Part shown: positions 2,793 through 25,754 of the stretch, one piece after another
How the letters are laid out: every line of letters begins with the position of its first letter
Position numbering within the stretch: the first letter of the stretch is position 1
IMG/VR virus record: IMGVR_UViG_2740892213_000014
Source of the DNA: a virus
Lineage: Duplodnaviria; Heunggongvirae; Uroviricota; Caudoviricetes
Strand: one strand, 5' to 3'
Length of the DNA: 25,754 nucleotides
Made by a program: the position numbers and the translations under genes
Notes under the pieces: model-generated
Databases searched by the model: none
What the model saw: the letters and a program-made list of their open reading frames with translations, nothing else
What the model was told of the DNA's origin: nothing

Positions 2793-3143
2793 ATGAAACT
2801 ACAGCGCAATTCTTCACAGCAGCGCTTCCGCAACGGTGCGGAACGCCATGCTAACCGTTTCGCTACCAGTGCATCACGTAGCAACTCTCGCTACAGCCTG
2901 AGCGAAACACACGCAACGCCGGATGGCTACCCAGTAAAACAAATTGGTGAACACACTTGGCTGATTGAAAAAGCAGGAATCGTGGTTCACAGATGCCAGC
3001 GCAACCCATTTACCGGAAACCGCATTTTTGCACTGAGCAACGGCGACAATCAGTTCGGGCAGGATTTCACATTGTACGAAGCACTTCGCACAGTTGATCG
3101 TCTGCTTCGCGGACAAAGTTTTATTAAACAGGCTGATTTATAA
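2793..3143 (+). CDS. Hypothetical early protein, 116 aa
   Basis: ORF track; same orientation as early operon; weak RBS. Confidence 0.5.
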   Translation: MKLQRNSSQQRFRNGAERHANRFATSASRSNSRYSLSETHATPDGYPVKQIGEHTWLIEKAGIVVHRCQRNPFTGNRIFALSNGDNQFGQDFTLYEALRTVDRLLRGQSFIKQADL

Positions 3144-3153
3144 CAGGTGCTTT

Positions 3154-3432
3154 ATGACCAAAGAGCATGCACAAGGTGTATTTATTCGTTTTATTGATTT
3201 TCGCGGTGAACTGTTATTACGCGCATCAGCTATTGATGGAGTCGTTCCATCCGAAAAAAATGCAGCTACTTACGTTTATCTGAACGGCACGCGCCTGACC
3301 GTAGAACTTCCGTACCAGACTGTACACGAAATCATTAGCGAAGCGGAAAAAGCACGTAAGACTAATGGCGATGAACCCTATATCGAAATTATTTGTATGG
3401 ATTCAGAAGCAGAAATTCAGAAAGCAGATTAA
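3154..3432 (+). CDS. Hypothetical early protein, 92 aa
   Basis: Start moved to ATG 3154 (MTKEHAQGVF…) with AGGTG RBS at 3144-3148. Confidence 0.55.
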   Translation: MTKEHAQGVFIRFIDFRGELLLRASAIDGVVPSEKNAATYVYLNGTRLTVELPYQTVHEIISEAEKARKTNGDEPYIEIICMDSEAEIQKAD

Positions 3433-3443
3433 AGGGCGTTGCG

Positions 3444-3686
3444 ATGGGCAAAGAATATAAAACTCTCATTAATAAAGCACTTGAGCGTTTTTATTTTCGC
3501 TTAAGTGCATCAGGCGCTCATGCTGAACGTGCAGCCCGTGACTCATTGACCAGGGCAATCCGGAGTCTGTATGACGTGGCTTTTTACGCTGATGATCTGG
3601 ATGCACTTAACGAACTTTCCGAGCTGATCTGTGCCGCAGAATGCGGGGAACATATTGAACCGTATAAGCTGGGGAATATTGCATGA
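3444..3686 (+). CDS. Hypothetical early protein, 80 aa
   Basis: Start moved to ATG 3444 (MGKEYKTL…); AAAGGG upstream. Confidence 0.5.
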   Translation: MGKEYKTLINKALERFYFRLSASGAHAERAARDSLTRAIRSLYDVAFYADDLDALNELSELICAAECGEHIEPYKLGNIA

Positions 3687-3796
3687 GTATATTTATCTCA
3701 TGGCTTGTTCTGATTATTTCGGTGGTCTGCGCCATTGGGATTATGCGAATTATTAATTCAGTGAAAAAGATCGAGCGTTTTTTCTCTGATGAATAA
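3683..3796 (+). CDS. Small hydrophobic ORF, 37 aa (MSIFISWLVLIISVVCAIGIMRIINSVKKIERFFSDE), predicted single transmembrane helix
   Basis: Translated by hand; not in ORF track (below its size cutoff). ATG 3683 overlaps TGA of upstream gene (ATGA coupling). Confidence 0.35.
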   Translation: MSIFISWLVLIISVVCAIGIMRIINSVKKIERFFSDE

Positions 3797-3888
3797 CGAT
3801 ACAAATAAAACATCAAATTAAATAAGAAAACGTGAAAACCATCCGTATTAACGGAGGTATTCGCACACGTAAATAATGGAGATATAAA

Positions 3889-4305
3889 ATGAACGCAAAA
3901 GAAGAAGGCATTATCAACACATTAAAAAAAATATCAGAAGCGGAAGATGAAATGGCTAAAGATGCCGTGAAGCGTAGCCAACATATGGCAGCACTTCACG
4001 CACTGACCATCGCAAAAATCACCGCTGACGCAGCCAAAATTATTGAGGAACAGGGCAAAGAAATCGACACTCTTAAAACACAGTCAACAGTTGCAGCCAT
4101 GAATCCGTCCAGCATTGGACGCCGCATTTACATTCTTGGTTCGGCAATAATGACGCAATACACCATTATTGCCGAACTGCACGGCAAATACCTGATAACG
4201 CCTTACCACACAAAGGAGTCAGAGCTTCTGACAAATCTCCGCCTGATAGAACGCTCTCAAGCTGTATTCATTGATGACGCGCAACGTGCCGTATTTAACG
4301 CATAG
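3889..4305 (+). CDS. Hypothetical early protein, 138 aa
   Basis: ORF track; GGAG RBS at 3876-3879. Confidence 0.55.
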   Translation: MNAKEEGIINTLKKISEAEDEMAKDAVKRSQHMAALHALTIAKITADAAKIIEEQGKEIDTLKTQSTVAAMNPSSIGRRIYILGSAIMTQYTIIAELHGKYLITPYHTKESELLTNLRLIERSQAVFIDDAQRAVFNA

Positions 4306-4328
4306 GGTTACTGGACAAAGGGGGCGCA

Positions 4329-4532
4329 ATGGCAATTAAGCATTTTCCCGTCGTTCGCTTTACCTCCAGAGGGCGCGAATACGAGGTCGACGAACGCCTG
4401 ATTACCACTATCGACAAACATCGTTCGGAAAAGGATGCACACCACATCTACCTCACTGACGGCACTTACTTCTGCGCCACCAACGTGGCGCGGGTGAATC
4501 TTATCCGACAGGTACAGGAGCCACGCAGATGA
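4329..4532 (+). CDS. Hypothetical early protein, 67 aa
   Basis: ORF track; AAGGGGG RBS upstream of ATG 4329. Confidence 0.5.
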   Translation: MAIKHFPVVRFTSRGREYEVDERLITTIDKHRSEKDAHHIYLTDGTYFCATNVARVNLIRQVQEPRR

Positions 4533-4795
4533 CCATTCTGGACTACATCGCTACTCATCCGGGGTGTAGCGGCGGAGAGATCGCCGCAGCACTGAATACT
4601 CCAACCACAGCCATTAATGCTGAGTTACGCCAACTTTGGCGCGGCGGCTTAGTCATCAGAACAAACCGCAGCACAGGTGGTCGCGCTCGCAAAACTGGAG
4701 GCCAGGCTTCTTACCACGTAAACCCGATGCCGTTCGGGTGTAGCAATCCACTTACTCACATGTTTAACCAGCTACTGAAGGAAGCCAGAGCATGA
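4529..4795 (+). CDS. Hypothetical protein, 88 aa, possible winged-helix DNA-binding fold
   Basis: ORF track; start overlaps stop of previous gene (coupled). HTH-like N-terminal segment; fold assignment is inference only. Confidence 0.5.
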   Translation: MTILDYIATHPGCSGGEIAAALNTPTTAINAELRQLWRGGLVIRTNRSTGGRARKTGGQASYHVNPMPFGCSNPLTHMFNQLLKEARA

Positions 4796-5091
4796 GCACC
4801 ATCAACCACCAGAAGCTACGCGAACTGGCATTTGCCCTGCAACGAATGGCAACGCCTCAAAAATTACTGGCATTTCGCGCAATGCTCTCGCCGTCTGCTG
4901 TGCTGGCATTGCTGGATGAGCTGGAGCACGCCAGAACCACGGCTCCTGCCATTCGCCTGACGCTCCATCATGAAATCGCTGATTTCTGCGCGACATTGGA
5001 GGCGCCAGGCGAACCGGAAACGCCGGAAGCAATACAGCAAGAGCTGCTGCAACGCATTGACAAGGTTTTTGATTTTTTTCTGAACCAGTAA
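4792..5091 (+). CDS. Hypothetical early protein, 99 aa
   Basis: ORF track; start overlaps stop of previous gene. Confidence 0.5.
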   Translation: MSTINHQKLRELAFALQRMATPQKLLAFRAMLSPSAVLALLDELEHARTTAPAIRLTLHHEIADFCATLEAPGEPETPEAIQQELLQRIDKVFDFFLNQ

Positions 5092-5413: not shown

Positions 5414-5644
5414 ATGGCAAACCGCAAACAGCACCGCGCTATCGCGGAGCGTCGTCACATCCAGACTGAAATCAACCGCAGACTTTCCCGCGCATTCCGC
5501 GTCGCTAAAATCATGCACATCAATATGCTGCATGAGCGTAGCTGCGAACTTTCAAACCTCTACTCATCCGCTGTTTTCAGCTATCTGGCGGATGATCTGC
5601 GCGAGCTTCAACAGCTCATCCAGCAGCAAAACAAACTCCATTAA
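5414..5644 (+). CDS. Hypothetical early protein, 76 aa
   Basis: ORF track; AAGAGG RBS at 5401-5406. Confidence 0.55.
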   Translation: MANRKQHRAIAERRHIQTEINRRLSRAFRVAKIMHINMLHERSCELSNLYSSAVFSYLADDLRELQQLIQQQNKLH

Positions 5645-5716
5645 TTCCTGTTCCGGGCCTTTCCTGCACCTTGCGGCGGGAGGCCTTCGCACATCTGTAA
5701 CAAGAGGATTGCCGCA

Positions 5717-6082
5717 ATGATTCTCGCCAACGACTTTCTTGAATACCTGCTCAACACAGAGCGTGATCTTGCCGCTCGCGTACGTGATCGTTATGACATG
5801 TATCTGAAATCCCTGCCTGTGCCGCAGCTCGCTGACGGAAAGATTGTTATTGATGGTCGCTACATGATTGACAGCCACGAGGGAAATTACAGGCTTTACC
5901 GCATTGAAGGTGGCACCCCGTCCGTTATTGGCATTTACCAGCGCCCATCCTCTGCAATCGTCGATGTGATTGCCGACAGCATCCGCATCACACATCGCCA
6001 TGCCGACACAGAAGACACCGTGCTGGAAATTCAGCGGCTGGCTGCCGTCTGCCGCGACACCCTGAATGGCATGACGAAGTAA
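5717..6082 (+). CDS. Hypothetical early protein, 121 aa
   Basis: ORF track; AGAGGA RBS upstream; immediately precedes gene A. Confidence 0.55.
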   Translation: MILANDFLEYLLNTERDLAARVRDRYDMYLKSLPVPQLADGKIVIDGRYMIDSHEGNYRLYRIEGGTPSVIGIYQRPSSAIVDVIADSIRITHRHADTEDTVLEIQRLAAVCRDTLNGMTK

Positions 6083-6088
6083 ATCACT

Positions 6089-8911
6089 ATGACGGCAGAG
6101 TACATCAGGGACTGGCAACAACCGCGCCACGCAGTGGGACGTGAAGGAACGGGGATCCCCGTTCCTGAATCCGCGCTTTCCTCCTGGCTGGATGCCTACC
6201 GGGCAGAGAACGAGCGCCGCCAGGAAATGGCTGATGCGGCGTTCTCCGCCACGCCGCTGGGCAACCTGATTAATAAAAGCCTGGATGCACAGGAAAAACA
6301 GGACAAAACCATCACACTGGCAGGAGACGCCAGAAAACAGGTACGCGGTGCGGTGGATGAAGCCATGGCCTCGCTGCGCCTGCTGCCGTCCTATCTGCGC
6401 GATCCGCTTATTCGCCACCTCTCCTTCCTGCGCAAAAAACAGGAAGCCGATCGCCGGAAAGGCAAAAAGAGCTGGCAGGCTGAACGCTACGCGCGCGGAA
6501 CCCTGCGCAAAATATTCGAACGTCTGGACCGCACCGACCACCGCTGGCTGACACCGGGTTATCGCTCCCTTGCCGGACGCGAACGCCTGGATGATTTGCT
6601 TTACCTGCCGCAGCTCAACAAGCACCAGATACAGACGCTGGCCACCATGACGGCGGCGATGTTCAGCAGCACCTTCGAAAAACTCTGCGATGGCTTTGGC
6701 GCGACTGATGGCGAGCTGACCATGGATGTAACGCTGAAGGCGTATCAGATGCTGGCCCGCATGGCGTTACACCTGCACGCCATGCCTCCGCATTATGACG
6801 CACTGACAACAGACAAAGACCGGAGGAACGAACCGGACACGGAGCTGCTGCCGGGCGCAATCCTTCGCCTGACCTGTGCGGAATGGTGGAAACGCAAACT
6901 GTGGCTGTTACGTTGCGAGTGGCGGGAAGAACAACTCCGCGCCGCCTGTCTGGTTTCCAGAAAAACATCGCCCTATCTGAGCCAGGACGCGTTAAGCGAG
7001 TTTCGCGCACAGCGCGAGAAAACACGCGATTTCCTGAAAAGTTTCATGCTGGAAAACGAAGACGGGTTCACGATTGATCTCGAGACGGTGTATTACGCGG
7101 GAGTAAGTAACCCGGTTCACCGTAAGGCAGAAATGATGGCCACCATGAAGGGGCTGGAACTTCTGGCCGAAGCCCGTGGCGACAAAGCGGTGTTTCTGAC
7201 TGTCACCTGCCCGTCAAAATACCACGCCACAACAGAGAACGGTCATCCGAATCCCAAATGGAACGGGGCCACCATGCGCGACTCCAGCGATTACCTGGTT
7301 AACACGTTTTTTGCGGCGGTCCGCAAGAAACTGAACCGCGACGGCCTGCGCTGGTATGGCATCCGCACGGTGGAGCCTCACCATGACGGCACCGTGCACT
7401 GGCATATGATGGTCTTTGCTCATCCGGAAGAAATCGACACCATTGTGTCCCACACCCGCGATATTGCCATTCAGGAAGATCGTCACGAGCTGGGTGATGA
7501 TATTACCCCACGCTTTAAGGCGGAGTACGTCGACGGCTCAAAAGGCACACCGACCAGCTACATCGCCACCTACATCGGGAAAAACCTGGACAGCCGTGCC
7601 GTGGATGGCATCGACCCGAAAACGGGCAAGCCACGCGTTGACCACGAAACCGGAAAATCAATGGCCGAGAGCGTGGAACGCGCCATCGGCTGGGCGCGCC
7701 TTCACCGGGTCCGCCAGTTCCAGTTCTTTGGTATCCCCTCCCGTCAGGTGTGGCGTGAACTGCGCCGCCTTGCCAGCCAGATGGCTCGCAACCCGGAAGG
7801 ACCGCAACGGCTGAAGGATGACGCAATGGACGCGGTTCTTGCTGCCGCTGATGCCGGATGTTTTGCCACCTACATAGAGAAACAGGGCGGCGTACTTGTT
7901 CCACGCAAGGACTACCTGATTCGCACCGCCTACGACCTCGCCGATGAGCTGAACGATTACGGTGAACAGAGCGTACAGATTTACGGGATCTGGTCACCGC
8001 TCATCGGGGAGTCTTCCCGCGTATGCACGCATCCGGACAACTGGAAGCTGGTAAGACGCAAACCGGAAGCGGAAGACAGCGCCCGCGAAAATGGTTTTGA
8101 CCTTCAGGGCGGCCCTGCCGCACCTTGGACTCGTGGCAATAACTGTCCCCGTGTACAGGAAACGGACAACAACGGGACAGAACAGCCGGAAGAACGGCCA
8201 GCACCGTGGCCGCAGCTTCCTGACGGCGTTGACGTGAACGAATGGATGCGCTCACTGAAACGGCACGAACGCCGGGCGCTGATGCGTTCGCTGCGTGACA
8301 AACAGGCAAAAAACAGCAGTGATGAAATGCAGAGCTGGACACAGAGCCGCAAACAGCAGCGGCCTTTGCCTGATAACCACGAATTACTCGCTAAAGAATG
8401 GCGGGAATCTGCCGAATCTCTCGGCCTGCATATCGGTGAACAGCAGATGCAGCACCTGTTACGGGGCGGCAGCCTGTACGTTGACGGCAGCATCATTGCA
8501 CCGCAGGGATTTGAAATTGTACGCAAACCGGATACCCGCCCGGACAGCCGAATCACGCAGCTCTGGCAGCGCCTGAGCCGTAATCACGGCGTAAGCAGCA
8601 CGGAGATCCGCCATAACCCGGTCGCCAGCTATCTGGAACAGCTGGGGGCATCAGACCCCGAAGCCGCCGCACGTCTGGCATCCACACTTCAGCAGGACCA
8701 GAACACCATGAACCCCCCCGTTACCGTGCTTTCTGACATGCTGCGCGCCATCCGCGACGCAGAGCACGCACAGAGAATCAGTGAAACCACTGAACGTGCC
8801 CGCCGCAAAGCAGACCTGCTGCGGGGTGGCCTGACCAGTGGAAACAAAAAACAGACAGAAACGGGATTCACAAATCCCGTAAATGAGCAAAAAACGCGCC
8901 GCGATATATGA
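6089..8911 (+). CDS. A: Rolling-circle replication initiator / replication endonuclease, P2 gpA family, 940 aa
   Basis: HUH-type motif VHWHMMVF and paired catalytic tyrosines in SYIATYIGKN (Y-x3-Y) are typical of gpA/phiX174-A-type initiators. Position between early genes and portal matches P2 synteny. Protein is longer than I recall for P2 A, with a C-terminal extension. Confidence 0.88.
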   Translation: MTAEYIRDWQQPRHAVGREGTGIPVPESALSSWLDAYRAENERRQEMADAAFSATPLGNLINKSLDAQEKQDKTITLAGDARKQVRGAVDEAMASLRLLPSYLRDPLIRHLSFLRKKQEADRRKGKKSWQAERYARGTLRKIFERLDRTDHRWLTPGYRSLAGRERLDDLLYLPQLNKHQIQTLATMTAAMFSSTFEKLCDGFGATDGELTMDVTLKAYQMLARMALHLHAMPPHYDALTTDKDRRNEPDTELLPGAILRLTCAEWWKRKLWLLRCEWREEQLRAACLVSRKTSPYLSQDALSEFRAQREKTRDFLKSFMLENEDGFTIDLETVYYAGVSNPVHRKAEMMATMKGLELLAEARGDKAVFLTVTCPSKYHATTENGHPNPKWNGATMRDSSDYLVNTFFAAVRKKLNRDGLRWYGIRTVEPHHDGTVHWHMMVFAHPEEIDTIVSHTRDIAIQEDRHELGDDITPRFKAEYVDGSKGTPTSYIATYIGKNLDSRAVDGIDPKTGKPRVDHETGKSMAESVERAIGWARLHRVRQFQFFGIPSRQVWRELRRLASQMARNPEGPQRLKDDAMDAVLAAADAGCFATYIEKQGGVLVPRKDYLIRTAYDLADELNDYGEQSVQIYGIWSPLIGESSRVCTHPDNWKLVRRKPEAEDSARENGFDLQGGPAAPWTRGNNCPRVQETDNNGTEQPEERPAPWPQLPDGVDVNEWMRSLKRHERRALMRSLRDKQAKNSSDEMQSWTQSRKQQRPLPDNHELLAKEWRESAESLGLHIGEQQMQHLLRGGSLYVDGSIIAPQGFEIVRKPDTRPDSRITQLWQRLSRNHGVSSTEIRHNPVASYLEQLGASDPEAAARLASTLQQDQNTMNPPVTVLSDMLRAIRDAEHAQRISETTERARRKADLLRGGLTSGNKKQTETGFTNPVNEQKTRRDI

Positions 8912-8987: not shown

Positions 8988-9947
8988 ATGAAAATTTGTA
9001 TCGACGACGGCTCCACCAACATCAAGCTGGCATGGACTGAGAATGGCGAACGCCGCAACGCCATCAGCCCGAACAGCTTCAAGTCGGAATGGTCTGCGCC
9101 GTTCGGTGGCATGCAGCCCGCGAACTACATGCTTGATGGCGTGCGCTATGGTTTTGATCCGGTCAGCGATCGCTTTGTCCAGACGACCGACACGCAATAC
9201 CAGTACAGCGATGTGAATGTAATCGCCATTCATCACGCGCTGGTCAAATCAGGCATCACGCCACAGGAGGTGGATGTGGTTGTCACCCTGCCACTGAGCG
9301 AGTATTTCGACACAAACGCACAGCCGGACATGGCCAACATCAACCGCAAAAAAGCGAACGTTATGCGCCCGGTGGAGTACCAGAACGGCGAAGCATTCAC
9401 TATCCGTAACGTGCGGGTTATGCCTGAATCCATTCCGGCTGGCTTTAAAGCACTGGCTGACATGAGTCCGTTTGAATCCCTGCTGATTGTGGATTTAGGC
9501 GGAACCACGCTGGATGTGGCAAAGGTTCAGGGGCAACTGGCAGGTATCAGCCAGGTGTTTTGCGATCCACACGTAGGCGTCTCCCTGATGGCCGGTGCCG
9601 TGCTGTCGGTGATGGCCGCTAACGGTATGCGTACCAGTCACCACATCGCCAATACCATTATCGAACATCGCCATGATGAAGCCTGGTTGCGCCAACACAT
9701 CCACAATGACGCGCATTACGCCAGCCTGATGGCGGTTATTCGTGAAAAGGAAGAAACACTGAAACAACGCGTGATCCGCGCGCTGGCGGGTTTTTCGGGT
9801 TACGGGCGGGTGATGGTTGTCGGTGGCGGGGCGGAGATTGTGGCACCCGCTATCCGCGAAGCCTGCGGAGTTAATGCGACTTTCATCGCGGACGGGGTGC
9901 CACAGTTTGCTCTGGTTAATGGGCTGTACGCAATGGACAAGGAGTAA
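8988..9947 (+). CDS. parM: Actin-like segregation ATPase, ParM/StbA family, 319 aa
   Basis: Long-range similarity to plasmid R1 ParM as I recall it (N-terminal IDDGSTNIKL, YSDVNV…HHAL, VMPESIPAG, DLGGTTLD, VGGGAE). AAGGAA RBS upstream. Confidence 0.8.
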   Translation: MKICIDDGSTNIKLAWTENGERRNAISPNSFKSEWSAPFGGMQPANYMLDGVRYGFDPVSDRFVQTTDTQYQYSDVNVIAIHHALVKSGITPQEVDVVVTLPLSEYFDTNAQPDMANINRKKANVMRPVEYQNGEAFTIRNVRVMPESIPAGFKALADMSPFESLLIVDLGGTTLDVAKVQGQLAGISQVFCDPHVGVSLMAGAVLSVMAANGMRTSHHIANTIIEHRHDEAWLRQHIHNDAHYASLMAVIREKEETLKQRVIRALAGFSGYGRVMVVGGGAEIVAPAIREACGVNATFIADGVPQFALVNGLYAMDKE

Positions 9948-9951
9948 ACCA

Positions 9952-10266
9952 ATGACGACACCAACCAGACGGATAAGTTTCTATCTGAAGCCAGTCGCCG
10001 TCAATAGTGAACGGGAGGCGTGTAATTACCTCGACAGCCTGCCAGCCTCTGAACGCAGCCGCGCGCAACGCGCGGCCTTTCTGGCCGGGCTGGCACTCAT
10101 AAAACGCGATCCTGCATTTGCCTATTGGTTGGCCGAATGGCCGGAAGAAGGAGCTGCGCCAGCCAAGAATAATATTCAGAGTAAATATGCCAGCACACCT
10201 GCCACCGGAAGCAATCACAGCACTAGCGAGATAAGAAAGAACATTCAGTCATTTTTCCCAGAGTGA
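9952..10266 (+). CDS. parR: ParR/StbB-like centromere-binding adaptor, 104 aa
   Basis: Start moved to ATG 9952 (MTTPTRRISFYLKP…), 5 nt after parM stop, with AAGGAG RBS. Segment DSLPASERSRAQRAAFLAGLAL resembles R1 ParR as recalled. Confidence 0.65.
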   Translation: MTTPTRRISFYLKPVAVNSEREACNYLDSLPASERSRAQRAAFLAGLALIKRDPAFAYWLAEWPEEGAAPAKNNIQSKYASTPATGSNHSTSEIRKNIQSFFPE

Positions 10267-19137: not shown

Positions 19138-19279
19138 CCCACCCACATGGGGAAACCTCGGAATATGGGGCGACCGCCTTCTGGATGCACTGGAAACCTG
19201 TAACGCGGATAAACGGGCCATTGCTGAACTGGATAAGAGAATAGCCGAACTGACACACCAGACGGGAGTAACACAATGA
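18998..19279 (+). CDS. lysC: o-spanin (Rz1 / LysC-like) lipoprotein, starts embedded in lysB in a different frame
   Basis: Start moved to ATG 18998 (MNAPTLCLTLVLLTGCAG…); lipobox LLTGC; proline-rich mature part. Confidence 0.65.
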   Translation: MNAPTLCLTLVLLTGCAGTQNAPGPAPSVRLIPQTLTMPVTPPPFPDPPTWGNLGIWGDRLLDALETCNADKRAIAELDKRIAELTHQTGVTQ

Positions 19280-21073
19280 CCAGTAAGAACTTTGCACTGA
19301 TTACAGCCATGACACAGGCTGAACTGACTCAAAAGGTGAATGAACATCTTGCGAAAGGGTGGCATCTTCAGGGGGAGACGCGGGTTGCCTACGAACCCGG
19401 CACCCCGTGGTATCTAATGCAGGCAATGGTGGCCGATGGCACTACAGACATCTCACCTGATTCCCCCCAGCACGGCAGCGTGCCGGAGTGGTATTACGTG
19501 GTGGTACTTGCTGGTCAATCCAATGCCATGTCATATGGTGAGGGAATGCCGCTGCCGGATTCTTACGATGCGCCCCACCCACGCATTAAGCAACTGGCCC
19601 GTCGCAACACAGTGACTCCCGGTGGTAAAGCATGCGCATTTAACGACATCATTCCGGCAGACCACTGCCTGCATGATGTTCAGGATATGAGCGCACTGAA
19701 TCACCCGAATGCAGACCTGAGCAAAGGGCAGTATGGCTGTGTCGGACAGGGCTTGCATATTGCCAAACGCCTGTTGCCTTACATTCCACAGAATGCCGGG
19801 ATTTTACTGGTTCCATGCTGTCGTGGTGGTTCGGCATTCACCCAGGGCGCGGAGGGGACATTCAGCGAGTCCACAGGAGCCAGTCAGGATTCGGCTCGCT
19901 GGGGTGTGGGTAAACCTTTATATCAGGACCTGATTTTGCGCACGAAGGCCGCATTGCAGAAAAACCCAAAAAACATGCTGCTGGCCGTATGCTGGATGCA
20001 GGGCGAATTTGACATGAGCGCCGCTACGTACTCACAGCAACCTCCGCTGTTTACGGCCATGCTGAAACAGTTTCGTGCGGACATTACCGAGTTTAACACG
20101 CAGTGTCATGGAGGCAGAGCGGCAAGTGTGCCATGGATTTGTGGTGACACGACGTATTACTGGAAAAACACCTACGGCACGCAGTACGACACCATTTACG
20201 GGGCGTACAAAAACAGGGAGAGCGACAACGTTTTCTTTGTGCCGTTCCTGACCGATGGTAGTGGCAACAATACCTCCACCAACGCACCAACGGAAGATCC
20301 GGATGCTGCAAGTGAGGGATATTACGGTTCGGCATCCCGAACGAACAAAAACTGGGTATCATCAAATCGCCAGACGCATTTCAGCTCATGGGCGCGTCGT
20401 GGCATTATTCCCGATCGTATGGCAACCGCTATTCTGAACGTAGCCGGTCGCACCTTAGCCTTCATCAGTGGTAAGGCACCGGAAATCAAACCCTCGCCCG
20501 GCGGCGACACGCCATCGGGGCCGTCTGAAGATGCATCCGTACGCACAATCTCCCTGTTGCCGACAGCCGGAGATGCTGCTGCGCAGGGCTGGAGCATTAA
20601 GAATGGCGGAATTCAGTTGTCAGAGGGTGTATTTAAGATCACCAAGCAGAGCAATAAAACCTGGTCCCTGACGCGCCCGGTGGATGACGCAGTCTCCCTG
20701 CTGACACGGGGTGGCAGACTGAGCTGTAAGTTTCGACTGTCAGGCGCACTGACCAACAATCAGTTCGGTCTGGGAATTTATCTGTATACCGATGTAGCGT
20801 TACCTGACGTCGTGGCGATGACCGGGACTGGTAACCCGTTCCTGATGTCGTTCTTCACCCNNNNNNNNNNNNNNNNNNNNNNNNNNNNNNNNNNNNNGCA
20901 GTGCCACGGTTACTCCGAAACTGAATGGAGTGGCTGGCCCGGCATTCCAGGTCATAAAAGACAGTCTGACACTGGGGCTGAATGCGCTGACGTTAACTGA
21001 TATCACTAAAAATGCCGCGTACGGCGTCGATATCGGCAGCCTGGTGCTGGAAATCAATAATCCCGCAGCATAA
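19276..21073 (+). CDS. NanS-p-like sialate O-acetylesterase (N-terminal DUF1737-like segment plus SASA/SGNH esterase domain); interrupted by N-gap, C-terminus re-framed
   Basis: N-terminus MTSKNFALITAMTQAELTQKVNEHLAKGWHLQGE and motif VVLAGQSNAMSYGEG (GQSN esterase block) as recalled for NanS-p of E. coli prophages. ATG 19276 overlaps lysC stop (ATGA). After the gap, frame 3 reads …SATVTPKLNGVAGPAFQVIKDSLTLGLNALTLTDITKNAAYGVDIGSLVLEINNPAA and stops at 21071-21073, just before the RBS of R. Confidence 0.65.
20861..20897. other. Run of 37 N (assembly gap or masked bases) inside the esterase gene
   Basis: Read directly; reading frame across it is undetermined. Confidence 0.99.
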
Positions 21074-22192: not shown

Positions 22193-22770
22193 GCGCAGAA
22201 CTCATGCGACTGCTGAGCAACATCATCCGCACCGGGATCATCTCTGAAGTTGATGAGAAGTCCTGGCGCGTGCGCGTTCGCAGCGGCGAACTGGAAACAG
22301 GCTGGTTGCGCTGGAACACCACGCGCGCGGGAGCCTTCAATGTGTGGCTGCCGCCATCACCAGGCGAACAGGTGGTAATTGCCTGCATTGGCGGCAACCC
22401 GGAAACCGCCATGATAATTGGCAGCCTGTGGAGTGATGCCAGTCCGGCCCCCGGCAAAAGCCTGAAAGAAATCGTGGTCAGCGCGCCGGATGGCGCGGTG
22501 TTCCGCTACGACGCAGACGCTGGCGCACTGAGCGCCAGCGGCATGAAAACAGCCACCCTGCAGGCATCCGTCAGCGTGACACTGGATACGCCCGTCGTGG
22601 AATGCACAAACCTTCTGAGAACGGCGACGCTTGACGTCACAAAAGGGGGAAAGATGAGCGGCAATATCACGCACAGCGGCGGCAATTTCACCTCAAACGG
22701 CATTACCGTGCATACGCATAAGCACGGTGGCGTTAAAGGTGGCAGCGATTCGACAGGAGGCCCGCAGTGA
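22189..22770 (+). CDS. V: Baseplate central spike protein, P2 gpV family
   Basis: GTG start overlapping S stop (GTGA). N-terminus MSAELMRLLSNIIRTGII and C-terminal region HSGGNFTSNGITVHTHKHGG resemble P2 V as recalled. Confidence 0.85.
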   Translation: MSAELMRLLSNIIRTGIISEVDEKSWRVRVRSGELETGWLRWNTTRAGAFNVWLPPSPGEQVVIACIGGNPETAMIIGSLWSDASPAPGKSLKEIVVSAPDGAVFRYDADAGALSASGMKTATLQASVSVTLDTPVVECTNLLRTATLDVTKGGKMSGNITHSGGNFTSNGITVHTHKHGGVKGGSDSTGGPQ

Positions 22771-23117
22771 CAACCCGCTACACAGGAATGAACCCGGACG
22801 GGACGGGAAACCTGAACGATATGGAGCACCTGAAACAGTCAGTCAGGGACATCCTGATCACCCCGCTGGCAAGCCGGGTTATGCGACGGGAATATGGCAG
22901 CCTTGTGCCTGATTTGATTGACGAACCCATGAATAACACCACGCGTCTGCAATGCATGAGTGCTGCCGTGATTGCGCTGACACGATGGGAACCCCGCATT
23001 GCCCTGGACGCCATCGACGTTGTCTGGAAGGCAGGAGGCCGCGCCGGGGTGACGCTGTCGGGCACTGTCATGCAGACCATGCAGAATGTTGAATTAACCA
23101 TCACGCTAAGGGAGTAA
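22767..23117 (+). CDS. W: Baseplate wedge protein, P2 gpW (gp25-like) family
   Basis: GTG start overlapping V stop (GTGA). MTTRYTGMN… and VMRREYGS resemble P2 W as recalled. Confidence 0.85.
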   Translation: MTTRYTGMNPDGTGNLNDMEHLKQSVRDILITPLASRVMRREYGSLVPDLIDEPMNNTTRLQCMSAAVIALTRWEPRIALDAIDVVWKAGGRAGVTLSGTVMQTMQNVELTITLRE

Positions 23118-24017: not shown

Positions 24018-24618
24018 TTCACTGTTACCACCATCAGCCAGCAATTTCATGCGTTGTGCCGAAGCCGTCGGAACACGCATTACAGACATTCCGGTAGACC
24101 TCAACACGCTGTGGTCGCCGGACACCTGCCCGGTGCATCTGCTGCCTTATCTCGCCTGGGCGTTTTCCGTTGACCGCTGGGATCGCAACTGGCCGGAAGA
24201 GACAAAGCGACAGGTGATTCGTGATGCATGGCTGACACACCGACACAAAGGGACCATCAGCGCACTGCGAAGAGCCGTGGAGCCTCTCGGCTACCTGATT
24301 GAAGTAAAGGAGTGGTGGCAACTCAACGAGGAGCCAGGAACATTTCGCATTGTTGTCGGAGTACTTGATCAGGGCATCACCGATGAAATGTATCAGGAAC
24401 TTGAGCGCCTTATTGCGGATGCAAAACCAGTAAGTCGCCATCTGACGGGGCTGGCGATCAGCCTGAGTGTGAACGGAAAGATTTTCGTTGGTACGGGATG
24501 CTATCACGGCGATGCCCTGACGGTTTATCCCTACACCCCGGAGTCTATTATTGTCGAAGGGGATTATTTCCCTGCTCCGGCCATTCATTTAATTGATAAT
24601 CTGAGAGTAAACGCATGA
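24010..24618 (+). CDS. I: Baseplate/tail protein, P2 gpI family
   Basis: Start moved to ATG 24010 (MSNSLLPPSAS…), overlapping J 3' end; synteny. Confidence 0.8.
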   Translation: MSNSLLPPSASNFMRCAEAVGTRITDIPVDLNTLWSPDTCPVHLLPYLAWAFSVDRWDRNWPEETKRQVIRDAWLTHRHKGTISALRRAVEPLGYLIEVKEWWQLNEEPGTFRIVVGVLDQGITDEMYQELERLIADAKPVSRHLTGLAISLSVNGKIFVGTGCYHGDALTVYPYTPESIIVEGDYFPAPAIHLIDNLRVNA

Positions 24619-25754
24619 CAGCGAAATACTACGCCATTCTGACTAATCAGGGCGCGGAACGACTGGCTAACGCGACGATGCTCGGCAGTAAGCTGAATTT
24701 GACGCAAATGGCCGTTGGTGATGCAAATGGTGTGTTACCAACACCAAACCCTGCACAAACAAAACTGATTAACCAGAAACGCATTGCACCGCTGAATCTT
24801 CTGAATGTTGACCCTAACAATCAGAGCCAGATTATTGCGGAGCAAATCATCCCTGAAGACGAGGGAGGATTCTGGATCCGTGAGATTGGTCTTTATGATG
24901 ATAAAGGTGTACTCATTGCGGTGGCAAACTGCCCGGAAACGTACAAACCGCAGTTGCAGGAAGGCAGTGGACGCACCCAGACTATCCGCATGATTCTGGT
25001 TGTCACGAACACCAAAGCCATCACGCTGAAAATCGACCCGTCTGTGGTTCTGGCAACCCGCAAATATGTGGATGATAAAATCTCAAAGCACGAGCAGTCA
25101 CGACGTCACCCGGACGCCTCGCTGACCGCAAAAGGCTTTGTTCAACTCAGTAGCGCCACTAACAGCGATTCTGAAACGCTGGCTGCAACGCCGAAAGCGG
25201 TTAAGGCCGCGTATGACCTTGCTAACGCAAAATATACCGCTCAGGACGCCACGACGGCACGAAAAGGCATTGTCCAGCTCAGTAGCGCCACCAACAGCGA
25301 TTCAGAAACGCTGGCGGCAACACCAAAGGCGGTAAAGGCAGCCTATGACCTTGCTAACGGGAAATATACCGCACAGGACGCCACGACGGCACAAAAAGGA
25401 ATTGTCCAGCTCAGTAGTGCAACCAACAGCACATCTGAAACGCTTGCTGCAACACCGAAAGCAGTGAAAGCAGCTAATGACAATGCGAATGGTCGGGTAC
25501 CTTCTGCCCGTAAGGTGAATGGTAAGGCGCTTTCGGCGGATATAACACTGACGCCGAAAGATATTGGTACGCTTAACTCAACAACAATGTCATTCAGCGG
25601 TGGTGCTGGTTGGTTCAAATTAGCAACGGTAACCATGCCACAGGCGAGTTCTGTTGTTTCAATTACGTTGATTGGTGGCGCTGGATTTAACGTCGGTTCA
25701 CCTCAACAGGCAGGTATATCTGAACTTGTTTTGCGTGCAGGTAATGGTAATCCG
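24615..25754 (+). CDS. H: Tail fibre protein, P2 gpH family; N-terminal 380 codons only, continues past window end
   Basis: Translated by hand (no in-window stop, so absent from ORF track). ATG 24615 overlaps I stop (ATGA). MTAKYYAILTNQGAERLANATMLGSKLNLTQMAVGDANG… matches conserved tail-fibre N-terminal domain as recalled. Confidence 0.88.
   Translation, partial: MTAKYYAILTNQGAERLANATMLGSKLNLTQMAVGDANGVLPTPNPAQTKLINQKRIAPLNLLNVDPNNQSQIIAEQIIPEDEGGFWIREIGLYDDKGVLIAVANCPETYKPQLQEGSGRTQTIRMILVVTNTKAITLKIDPSVVLATRKYVDDKISKHEQSRRHPDASLTAKGFVQLSSATNSDSETLAATPKAVKAAYDLANAKYTAQDATTARKGIVQLSSATNSDSETLAATPKAVKAAYDLANGKYTAQDATTAQKGIVQLSSATNSTSETLAATPKAVKAANDNANGRVPSARKVNGKALSADITLTPKDIGTLNSTTMSFSGGAGWFKLATVTMPQASSVVSITLIGGAGFNVGSPQQAGISELVLRAGNGNP
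25131..25490 (+). repeat. Tandem 132-bp (44-codon) repeats within H, about 2.7 copies (KGxVQLSSATNSxSETLAATPKAVKAAxDLAN…)
   Basis: Read directly; copies are near-identical in protein but differ at many silent positions. Confidence 0.8.

Follow-up and report, generated by a model that had tools for sequence, protein, structure and literature searches.

Near the 3′ end of the window, the 25,754-nt stretch of viral DNA analyzed here (IMG/VR record IMGVR_UViG_2740892213_000014), a tail-fiber gene encodes three successive copies of nearly the same 44-residue peptide. This raises the question of what the repeated unit is, how old its duplication is, and whether the number of copies bears on fiber length or host range. 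The gene is the 5′ part of a P2-type tail-fiber gene H (24615..25754, + strand; 380 codons, open at the window end), identified from its translation and matches to PHROG tail-fiber families (E of 4e-176). The four open reading frames (ORFs) 5′ of H match PHROG families of the baseplate V, W, J, and I equivalents. The entire 1140-nt H segment has 100% identity to its counterpart in a P2-like prophage of Escherichia coli 2013C-3342 (NZ_CP027766.1), in which the gene order is V-W-J-I-H followed by a PF02413 tail-fiber assembly gene (locus L001) and H is annotated as "tail fiber protein." Two Pfam domains are present in the H fragment. PF12571 (Phage_tail_fib, "Phage tail-collar fibre protein N-terminal") covers the N-terminal, baseplate-proximal domain (residues 1–150; 24615..25064, + strand; E of 6.6e-62, profile positions 1–150 of 150), and PF03406 (Phage_fiber_2) covers the repeats. 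The array is very probably a set of three tandem PF03406 (Pf2) units within the shaft of gpH, a P2-type tail fiber, with the baseplate-proximal N-terminal domain on one side and a distal receptor-binding half on the other.

The array spans 25113–25508 (+ strand) in 132-nt (44-codon) units that are in frame with the coding sequence starting at the ATG at 24615, and it corresponds to residues 167–298. Unit 1 (25113..25244, + strand; DASLTAKGFVQLSSATNSDSETLAATPKAVKAAYDLANAKYTAQ) was delimited by repeat searches, is of a first type (DASLTAKGF...), and includes the best PF03406 stretch of the protein, residues 169–210, which spans profile positions 1–42 of 42. Unit 2 (25245..25376, + strand; DATTARKGIVQLSSATNSDSETLAATPKAVKAAYDLANGKYTAQ) is of an internal type (DATTARKGI...) and unit 3 (25377..25508, + strand; DATTAQKGIVQLSSATNSTSETLAATPKAVKAANDNANGRVPSA) is of a last type that ends in AANDNANGRVPSA, both delimited by unit comparison and Pfam matches. 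The last ∼8 codons of unit 3 diverge from those of units 1 and 2, and alignment of the next 44 codons to the units gives only 7–9% amino acid identity, indicating that they are unrelated. The distal module starts at this point (25509..25754, + strand; RKVNGKALSADITLTPKDIG...) and is common to lambdoid side-tail-fiber genes.

Boundaries drawn from DNA alone are slightly narrower. Tandem Repeats Finder reports a single long-period array in the window (25130–25481; period of 132, 2.7 copies, 85% matches, no indels, score of 508), and a repeat search of the window recovers three 132-nt copies, all in register. The preliminary description had placed three tandem 44-codon copies at 25131–25490. The copies are real, counted as 2.7 by DNA and as three full Pfam matches by protein, the period is exactly 44 residues, and the described span falls within the true array. 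Other ORFs overlap the array, one antisense (25343–25636, − strand, 97 aa) and two in the +2 frame (25138–25335 and 25345–25467). They are probably by-products of repeat composition, as the third-position bias fits the frame of H alone.

Assignment of the units to PF03406 is straightforward. The profile matches three times (210.9 bits against a cut-off of 22; E of 1.2e-63), all units match the full 42-position model, and the longer ORF from L001 gives the same result. The family motif, G-x-V-Q-L-S-S ... S-E-x-x-A-A-T-P-K-A-V-K with a periodicity of ∼44 residues, is present in the window array. Across 234 unique units the consensus is DAtt..KG.vqLSsatdS.SE.lAATPKAVKaA.D.Ang, and the columns that are invariant in an alignment of 35 units (G8, L12, A24, T26, and K31) are all kept in the window units. 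The array is thus already known, its units being unremarkable members of the catalogued "phage tail fibre repeat."

Relationships among units across phages correlate with their position in the array. We retrieved 156 related loci with a three-unit query, keeping the best-scoring, and searched them for units with an HMM trained on the three units of the window. In the 55 unique genes that have three units and a P2-type N-terminal domain, the nearest relative has the same unit index in 55, 54, and 54 genes for units 1, 2, and 3, respectively. Mean between-gene nucleotide identity is 0.80, 0.80, and 0.77 for units in the same position and 0.63–0.74 for units in different positions. The closest relatives of unit 1 of the window are first units of other genes (up to 95.5% nucleotide identity), those of unit 2 are internal units (2/4 and 3/4; up to 93.9%), and those of unit 3 are last units elsewhere, including those of lambdoid Stf genes (up to 97.7%). 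Three distinct unit types can therefore be recognized: first (DASLTAKGF...), internal (DATTA[RQ]KG[IL]...), and last (...AANDNANGRVPSA). Because units are positional orthologs across the 55 genes, the duplication is old, as had been suggested, and it predates the dissemination of the array in this group of phages.

An alternative is that the similarity of units is kept mainly by concerted evolution, through gene conversion or unequal crossing-over within genes, such that no ancient duplication is needed. Some data are in line with such processes. Units 1 and 2 are more alike within a gene (0.793) than unit 1 is to unit 2 of another gene (0.739), patches of clustered mismatches in otherwise near-identical arrays resemble conversion tracts, and freshly duplicated internal units occur. 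The within-gene excess implies that some gene conversion or lineage-specific duplication blurs a simple picture of old duplication. However, at each position, the closest unit in 53 of 55 genes is the same-position unit of another gene, closer than a unit's own neighbors. Likewise, the units of the window are 94–98% identical in nucleotides to their positional counterparts elsewhere but only 67–83% identical to each other, and the nearest-neighbor test points to separate first, internal, and last classes across genes. We therefore regard concerted evolution as an improbable main cause. Homogenization of units appears to be minor, though present, and the old duplication remains the preferred reading.

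Old units do not imply a fixed number of units. Repeat number had been proposed as a variable of this region, and related H genes do differ in it, with one to seven units. Of 107 unique genes that have the P2-type N-terminal domain, 19 have one unit, 16 have two, 58 have three, 11 have four, two have five, and one has seven, a distribution skewed to three by the three-unit query and by the ranking of loci on score. Several apparently full-length genes with the P2-type N-terminal domain carry zero units, and genes with the distal flank of the window have two, three, or four. Differences can separate genes that are otherwise nearly the same. For loci L080 (three units) and L087 (four units), identity is 99% over the 480 nt that precede the array and 100% over the 600 nt that follow; for L090 (three units) and L086 (four units), the corresponding values are 97% and 98%. 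Each of these pairs differs by one internal unit.

The units that come and go are of a single class. Extra units in arrays of four or five copies are of the internal type and are gained and lost as whole 132-nt steps. Only five adjacent pairs of units are at least 95% identical in nucleotides, one of them at 100%, and all are internal units of four- to five-copy arrays. The expansions are therefore recent. The array follows birth-and-death dynamics, with stable units at its two ends. The seven-unit gene (locus L091, 4001–6190, IMG/VR UViG_2541047897_000007), which has the N-terminal subtype of the window, is organized differently. Its spacing alternates between 44 and 56–57 residues and its unit types also alternate (AASLTAKGT... 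and DATTTRKGI...), suggesting duplication of a two-unit super-repeat.

At the codon level, the units have diverged mostly at silent sites. Units 1 and 2 are 83% identical in nucleotides and 86% in amino acids, with 5, 3, and 14 differences at codon positions 1, 2, and 3, respectively (dS of 0.63 and dN of 0.085; all values are Nei–Gojobori estimates). Units 2 and 3 are 73.5% and 80% identical, with 8, 6, and 21 differences (dS of 1.19, dN of 0.17), and units 1 and 3 are 67% and 68% identical, with 13, 8, and 22 differences (dS of 1.37, dN of 0.27). Differences are concentrated at third codon positions, dN/dS between window units is ∼0.13–0.19, and synonymous change exceeds nonsynonymous change in each comparison (Fisher's P = 2.5e-5 for units 1 and 2, 2.2e-6 for units 2 and 3, and 2.6e-5 for units 1 and 3). 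The preliminary description of a conserved peptide with divergent silent sites is accurate by both codon alignment and Fisher tests. The alignment identifies the copies as homologous, in-frame repeats, and the significant synonymous excess supports the purifying selection that had been proposed to act on the repeated unit. The divergence is typical of the family, as adjacent unit pairs have a median nucleotide identity of 0.765, pS of 0.49, and pN of 0.15 (175 pairs from 86 unique arrays).

Silent sites of the units have drifted apart but fall short of saturation. At positions where residues are identical, codons are also identical in 26 of 38, 20 of 35, and 15 of 30 cases, compared to 14.7 ± 2.9, 12.6 ± 2.7, and 10.9 ± 2.5 expected if codons were chosen at random from local codon usage. 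The excess fits neutral decay since duplication. It also argues against the idea that silent divergence is itself selected, with codon diversification shortening identical tracts and thereby suppressing RecA-mediated deletion of units. The longest exact in-register runs between window units are just 16, 11, and 17 nt, as this idea would have it, and efficient RecA-dependent recombination in E. coli is usually quoted as needing ∼20–30 nt of identity. Given these lengths, the three-unit array of the window should be fairly stable. But in relatives, arrays hold adjacent units that are 96–100% identical and near-identical genes still differ in copy number, making selection for silent divergence highly unlikely. 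Neutral decay under purifying selection on the peptide is the more plausible history of the silent sites.

The 5′ edge of the array coincides with a junction between two lineages. Per-base mismatch maps, made for this one junction in the H gene of the window, place it in the stretch from 18 nt upstream to 35 nt downstream of the first base of unit 1. This 54-nt interval (25095..25148, + strand; gene nucleotides 481–534) encodes SRRHPDASLTAKGFVQLS. Compared with locus L092, H has one mismatch in the 185 nt up to position +35 of unit 1, followed by ∼25% and later ∼80% mismatches. Compared with L090, mismatches make up 40–60% of positions up to −18, followed by one mismatch in the next 89 nt. Flanking identities mirror this switch. 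Over the 480 nt that precede the array, H is 98% identical to L092 but 61–62% identical to L090, L079, and L086; over the 600 nt that follow it, identity is 98% to L090, L079, and L086 but 51% to L092. BLAST alignments suggested that L091–L093 are 95% identical to H as far as gene nucleotide 740. The mismatch maps reveal that high identity really ends ∼35 nt into unit 1, so that identity of L091–L093 past the seam is ordinary repeat similarity.

Upstream of the seam, H thus follows the P2-like lineage of L092 and L093, and downstream that of L090, L079, and L086 together with lambdoid Stf genes. The array and distal half (gene nucleotides 526–1680) are 94–95% identical in nucleotides to loci L010, L156, and L157. 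Of these, L156 carries the lambdoid PF08400 N-terminal domain, and most genes that match the array and distal part in complete E. coli genomes carry the annotation "prophage tail fiber N-terminal domain-containing protein." The seam shows the classical pattern of module exchange between the tail fibers of unrelated phages. Reports that P2, lambda, Mu, and related phages exchange tail-fiber segments date back to the early 1990s (references cited in PMC3945230). The duplication had also been suggested to be protected from recombination. This part of the claim is too strong, since the edge of the array is itself a junction in H and relatives hold fresh internal duplicates that are 96–100% identical in nucleotides.

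The conservation and mobility of the array suggest how it may function. Each unit would be a fixed structural module of a trimeric fiber shaft, and copy number would set the length or flexibility of the shaft. Units could be gained and lost by unequal homologous recombination or slippage between them. Through the homology of its conserved DNA, the repeat would in turn enable unrelated phages to swap distal halves of their fibers. In a further, joint extension, unit number would be a fast-switching control of fiber reach and the conserved 5′ edge of the array a preferred crossover point. If so, single 44-residue steps could match fiber length to the thickness of the host O-antigen or capsule, and contractile-tailed P2-like and noncontractile lambdoid phages could exchange distal fiber halves at this point. 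This extension draws on the single-unit difference between near-identical genes and on one junction mapped at the edge of the array, and we consider it speculative and rather unlikely to hold as a whole.

The repeats could instead be receptor-binding or host-range modules, for example, ones that bind surface glycans, rather than parts of a shaft or linker. Beyond the place of the array in the fiber, nothing favors this possibility. The peptide-conserved repeat is joined to unrelated distal sequences (L153, L152, and L091, as well as L092, which is 51% identical after the array) and occurs in P2-like, lambdoid, and Mu fibers alike. Moreover, receptor-binding tips usually diversify, the reverse of the strong purifying selection seen in the repeats. 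In these fiber families, receptor specificity resides in the C-terminal part and its assembly chaperone. Since the repeat joins unrelated distal sequences and evolves conservatively, a direct role in receptor binding is unlikely, and we find the proposal as a whole hardly credible. Host range had been suggested to vary with repeat number, but the array occurs together with distal parts that are unrelated to one another, so any effect of it on host range would be indirect at best. Finally, an assembly artifact or chance resemblance has next to no probability, because a complete genome and an independent IMG/VR contig each carry the identical segment, the 44-residue period recurs in more than 120 unique related arrays, and the Pfam E-value is 1e-63.

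Repeats of this family are found in several known fibers, which differ from the window in what surrounds the repeats. Lambda Stf and StfR of E. coli K-12 have the same repeat (PF03406 Phage_fiber_2, IPR005068, Pf2). Lambdoid Stf-type genes have three units and the distal half of the window at 94–95% nucleotide identity. Before the array, these genes encode PF08400 and a long coiled-coil-like stretch, unlike H of the window, which encodes PF12571. The gpH proteins of P2-like phages (Peduovirus) resemble H of the window in the N-terminal domain (92–97% nucleotide identity) and in gene order, V-W-J-I-H and then the assembly chaperone, and many P2-like H genes carry one to seven units. No record in the phage collection spans more than ∼41% of the 1140-nt segment in one piece. 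H of the window is a particular mosaic of N-terminal subtype, array, and distal half.

Mu gpS (gp49; PDB entries 5YVQ, 9KI1, and 8JU3) has one copy of the repeat (residues 111–153, DASLNKKGLVQLTSATDSPSETLAATAKAVKIAMDNANARL; profile E of 7e-19) that most resembles the last-type unit of the window. Unlike H, it has a lone copy rather than an array, and its N-terminus is unrelated. In sequence and profile searches of the PDB, gpS was the sole repeat carrier, and we know of no solved structure that covers an array; matches to TPR and hemoglobin entries in these searches were noise (E of ∼0.2–0.7). The cryo-EM model of Mu has the fiber built at its N-terminus alone (PMC11915804). AlphaFold2 run on the 380-residue fragment as a monomer from a single sequence gave a mean pLDDT of 35 and pTM of 0.23, which is too low to use. 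Pf2 was first identified in lambda Stf, and little is known of its structure and function (PMC3368898). In rotary-shadowing EM of an enterohemorrhagic E. coli (EHEC) prophage fiber, an internal globular feature between collagen-like stalks is presumed to include Pf2 domains, a provisional interpretation of this node (PMC3368898). EHEC collagen-like fiber proteins of the EPclB type share the Pf2 repeat with H, but there it is flanked by collagen triple-helix segments; a Pfam search of the H fragment of the window found no collagen-like sequence.

As a discovery, the array matters little, because the repeat is a curated Pfam family and exchange of fiber segments has long been described. The first, internal, and last identities of units are stable across phages. 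Single-unit differences between near-identical genes represent a natural isogenic series (two, three, and four units) for tests of shaft length and adsorption. Engineered chimeric P2-type fibers could sensibly be fused at the 54-nt seam at the start of the array, where the baseplate-binding module meets the exchangeable distal one.

The distal half of H continues beyond the window and can be followed in relatives. It has a Collar domain (PF07484), short repeats (GTKTTSSFDYGTKTTSLFDYGTKTTS), and His-rich repeats (L078 ∼5600–6010 and L001 ∼7600–7790), and the related protein of L010 has a PF03335-type match. In NZ_CP027766.1, H is annotated as a frameshifted pseudogene. Its ORF ends at codon 595, and the frameshift is located just after GANQGGK in the distal half, suggesting that the fiber may be nonfunctional in some carriers. 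The close relative L078 encodes an intact H protein of 671 residues. Gene W of NZ_CP027766.1, like H, is annotated as a frameshifted pseudogene; the W ORF of the window (22767–23117) reads through. Outside of the H segment, the window and NZ_CP027766.1 (L158 and L001) are 84–99% identical compared to 100% within it, and the left end at ∼2800–4800 is arranged differently. The window therefore derives from a distinct, though related, P2-like prophage.

Other genes in the window and its relatives are also of note. Following the replication endonuclease gene, the early region encodes a ParM-type actin-like segregation protein (PF06406 and PF21523, E of 3e-82; 8988–9947 and 9817–10266, both + strand). 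In the corresponding place of NZ_CP027766.1, a "plasmid partitioning/stability family protein" is annotated beside the ParM-type gene, so that this P2-like prophage has a partition module in the style of plasmids. A 574-aa ORF (19276–21000, + strand), flanked by the lysis cassette and tail genes R and S, encodes DUF1737, a sialate O-acetylesterase domain (SASA, PF03629), and a weak match to DUF6645, the domain makeup of NanS-type esterases of EHEC lambdoid prophages. It had no match in PADLOC and is cargo within the P2-like late operon. A serine acetyltransferase gene in L001 (8637–9209, − strand), located beyond the tail-fiber assembly gene and before the tail genes, likewise looks like a cargo (moron) insertion.
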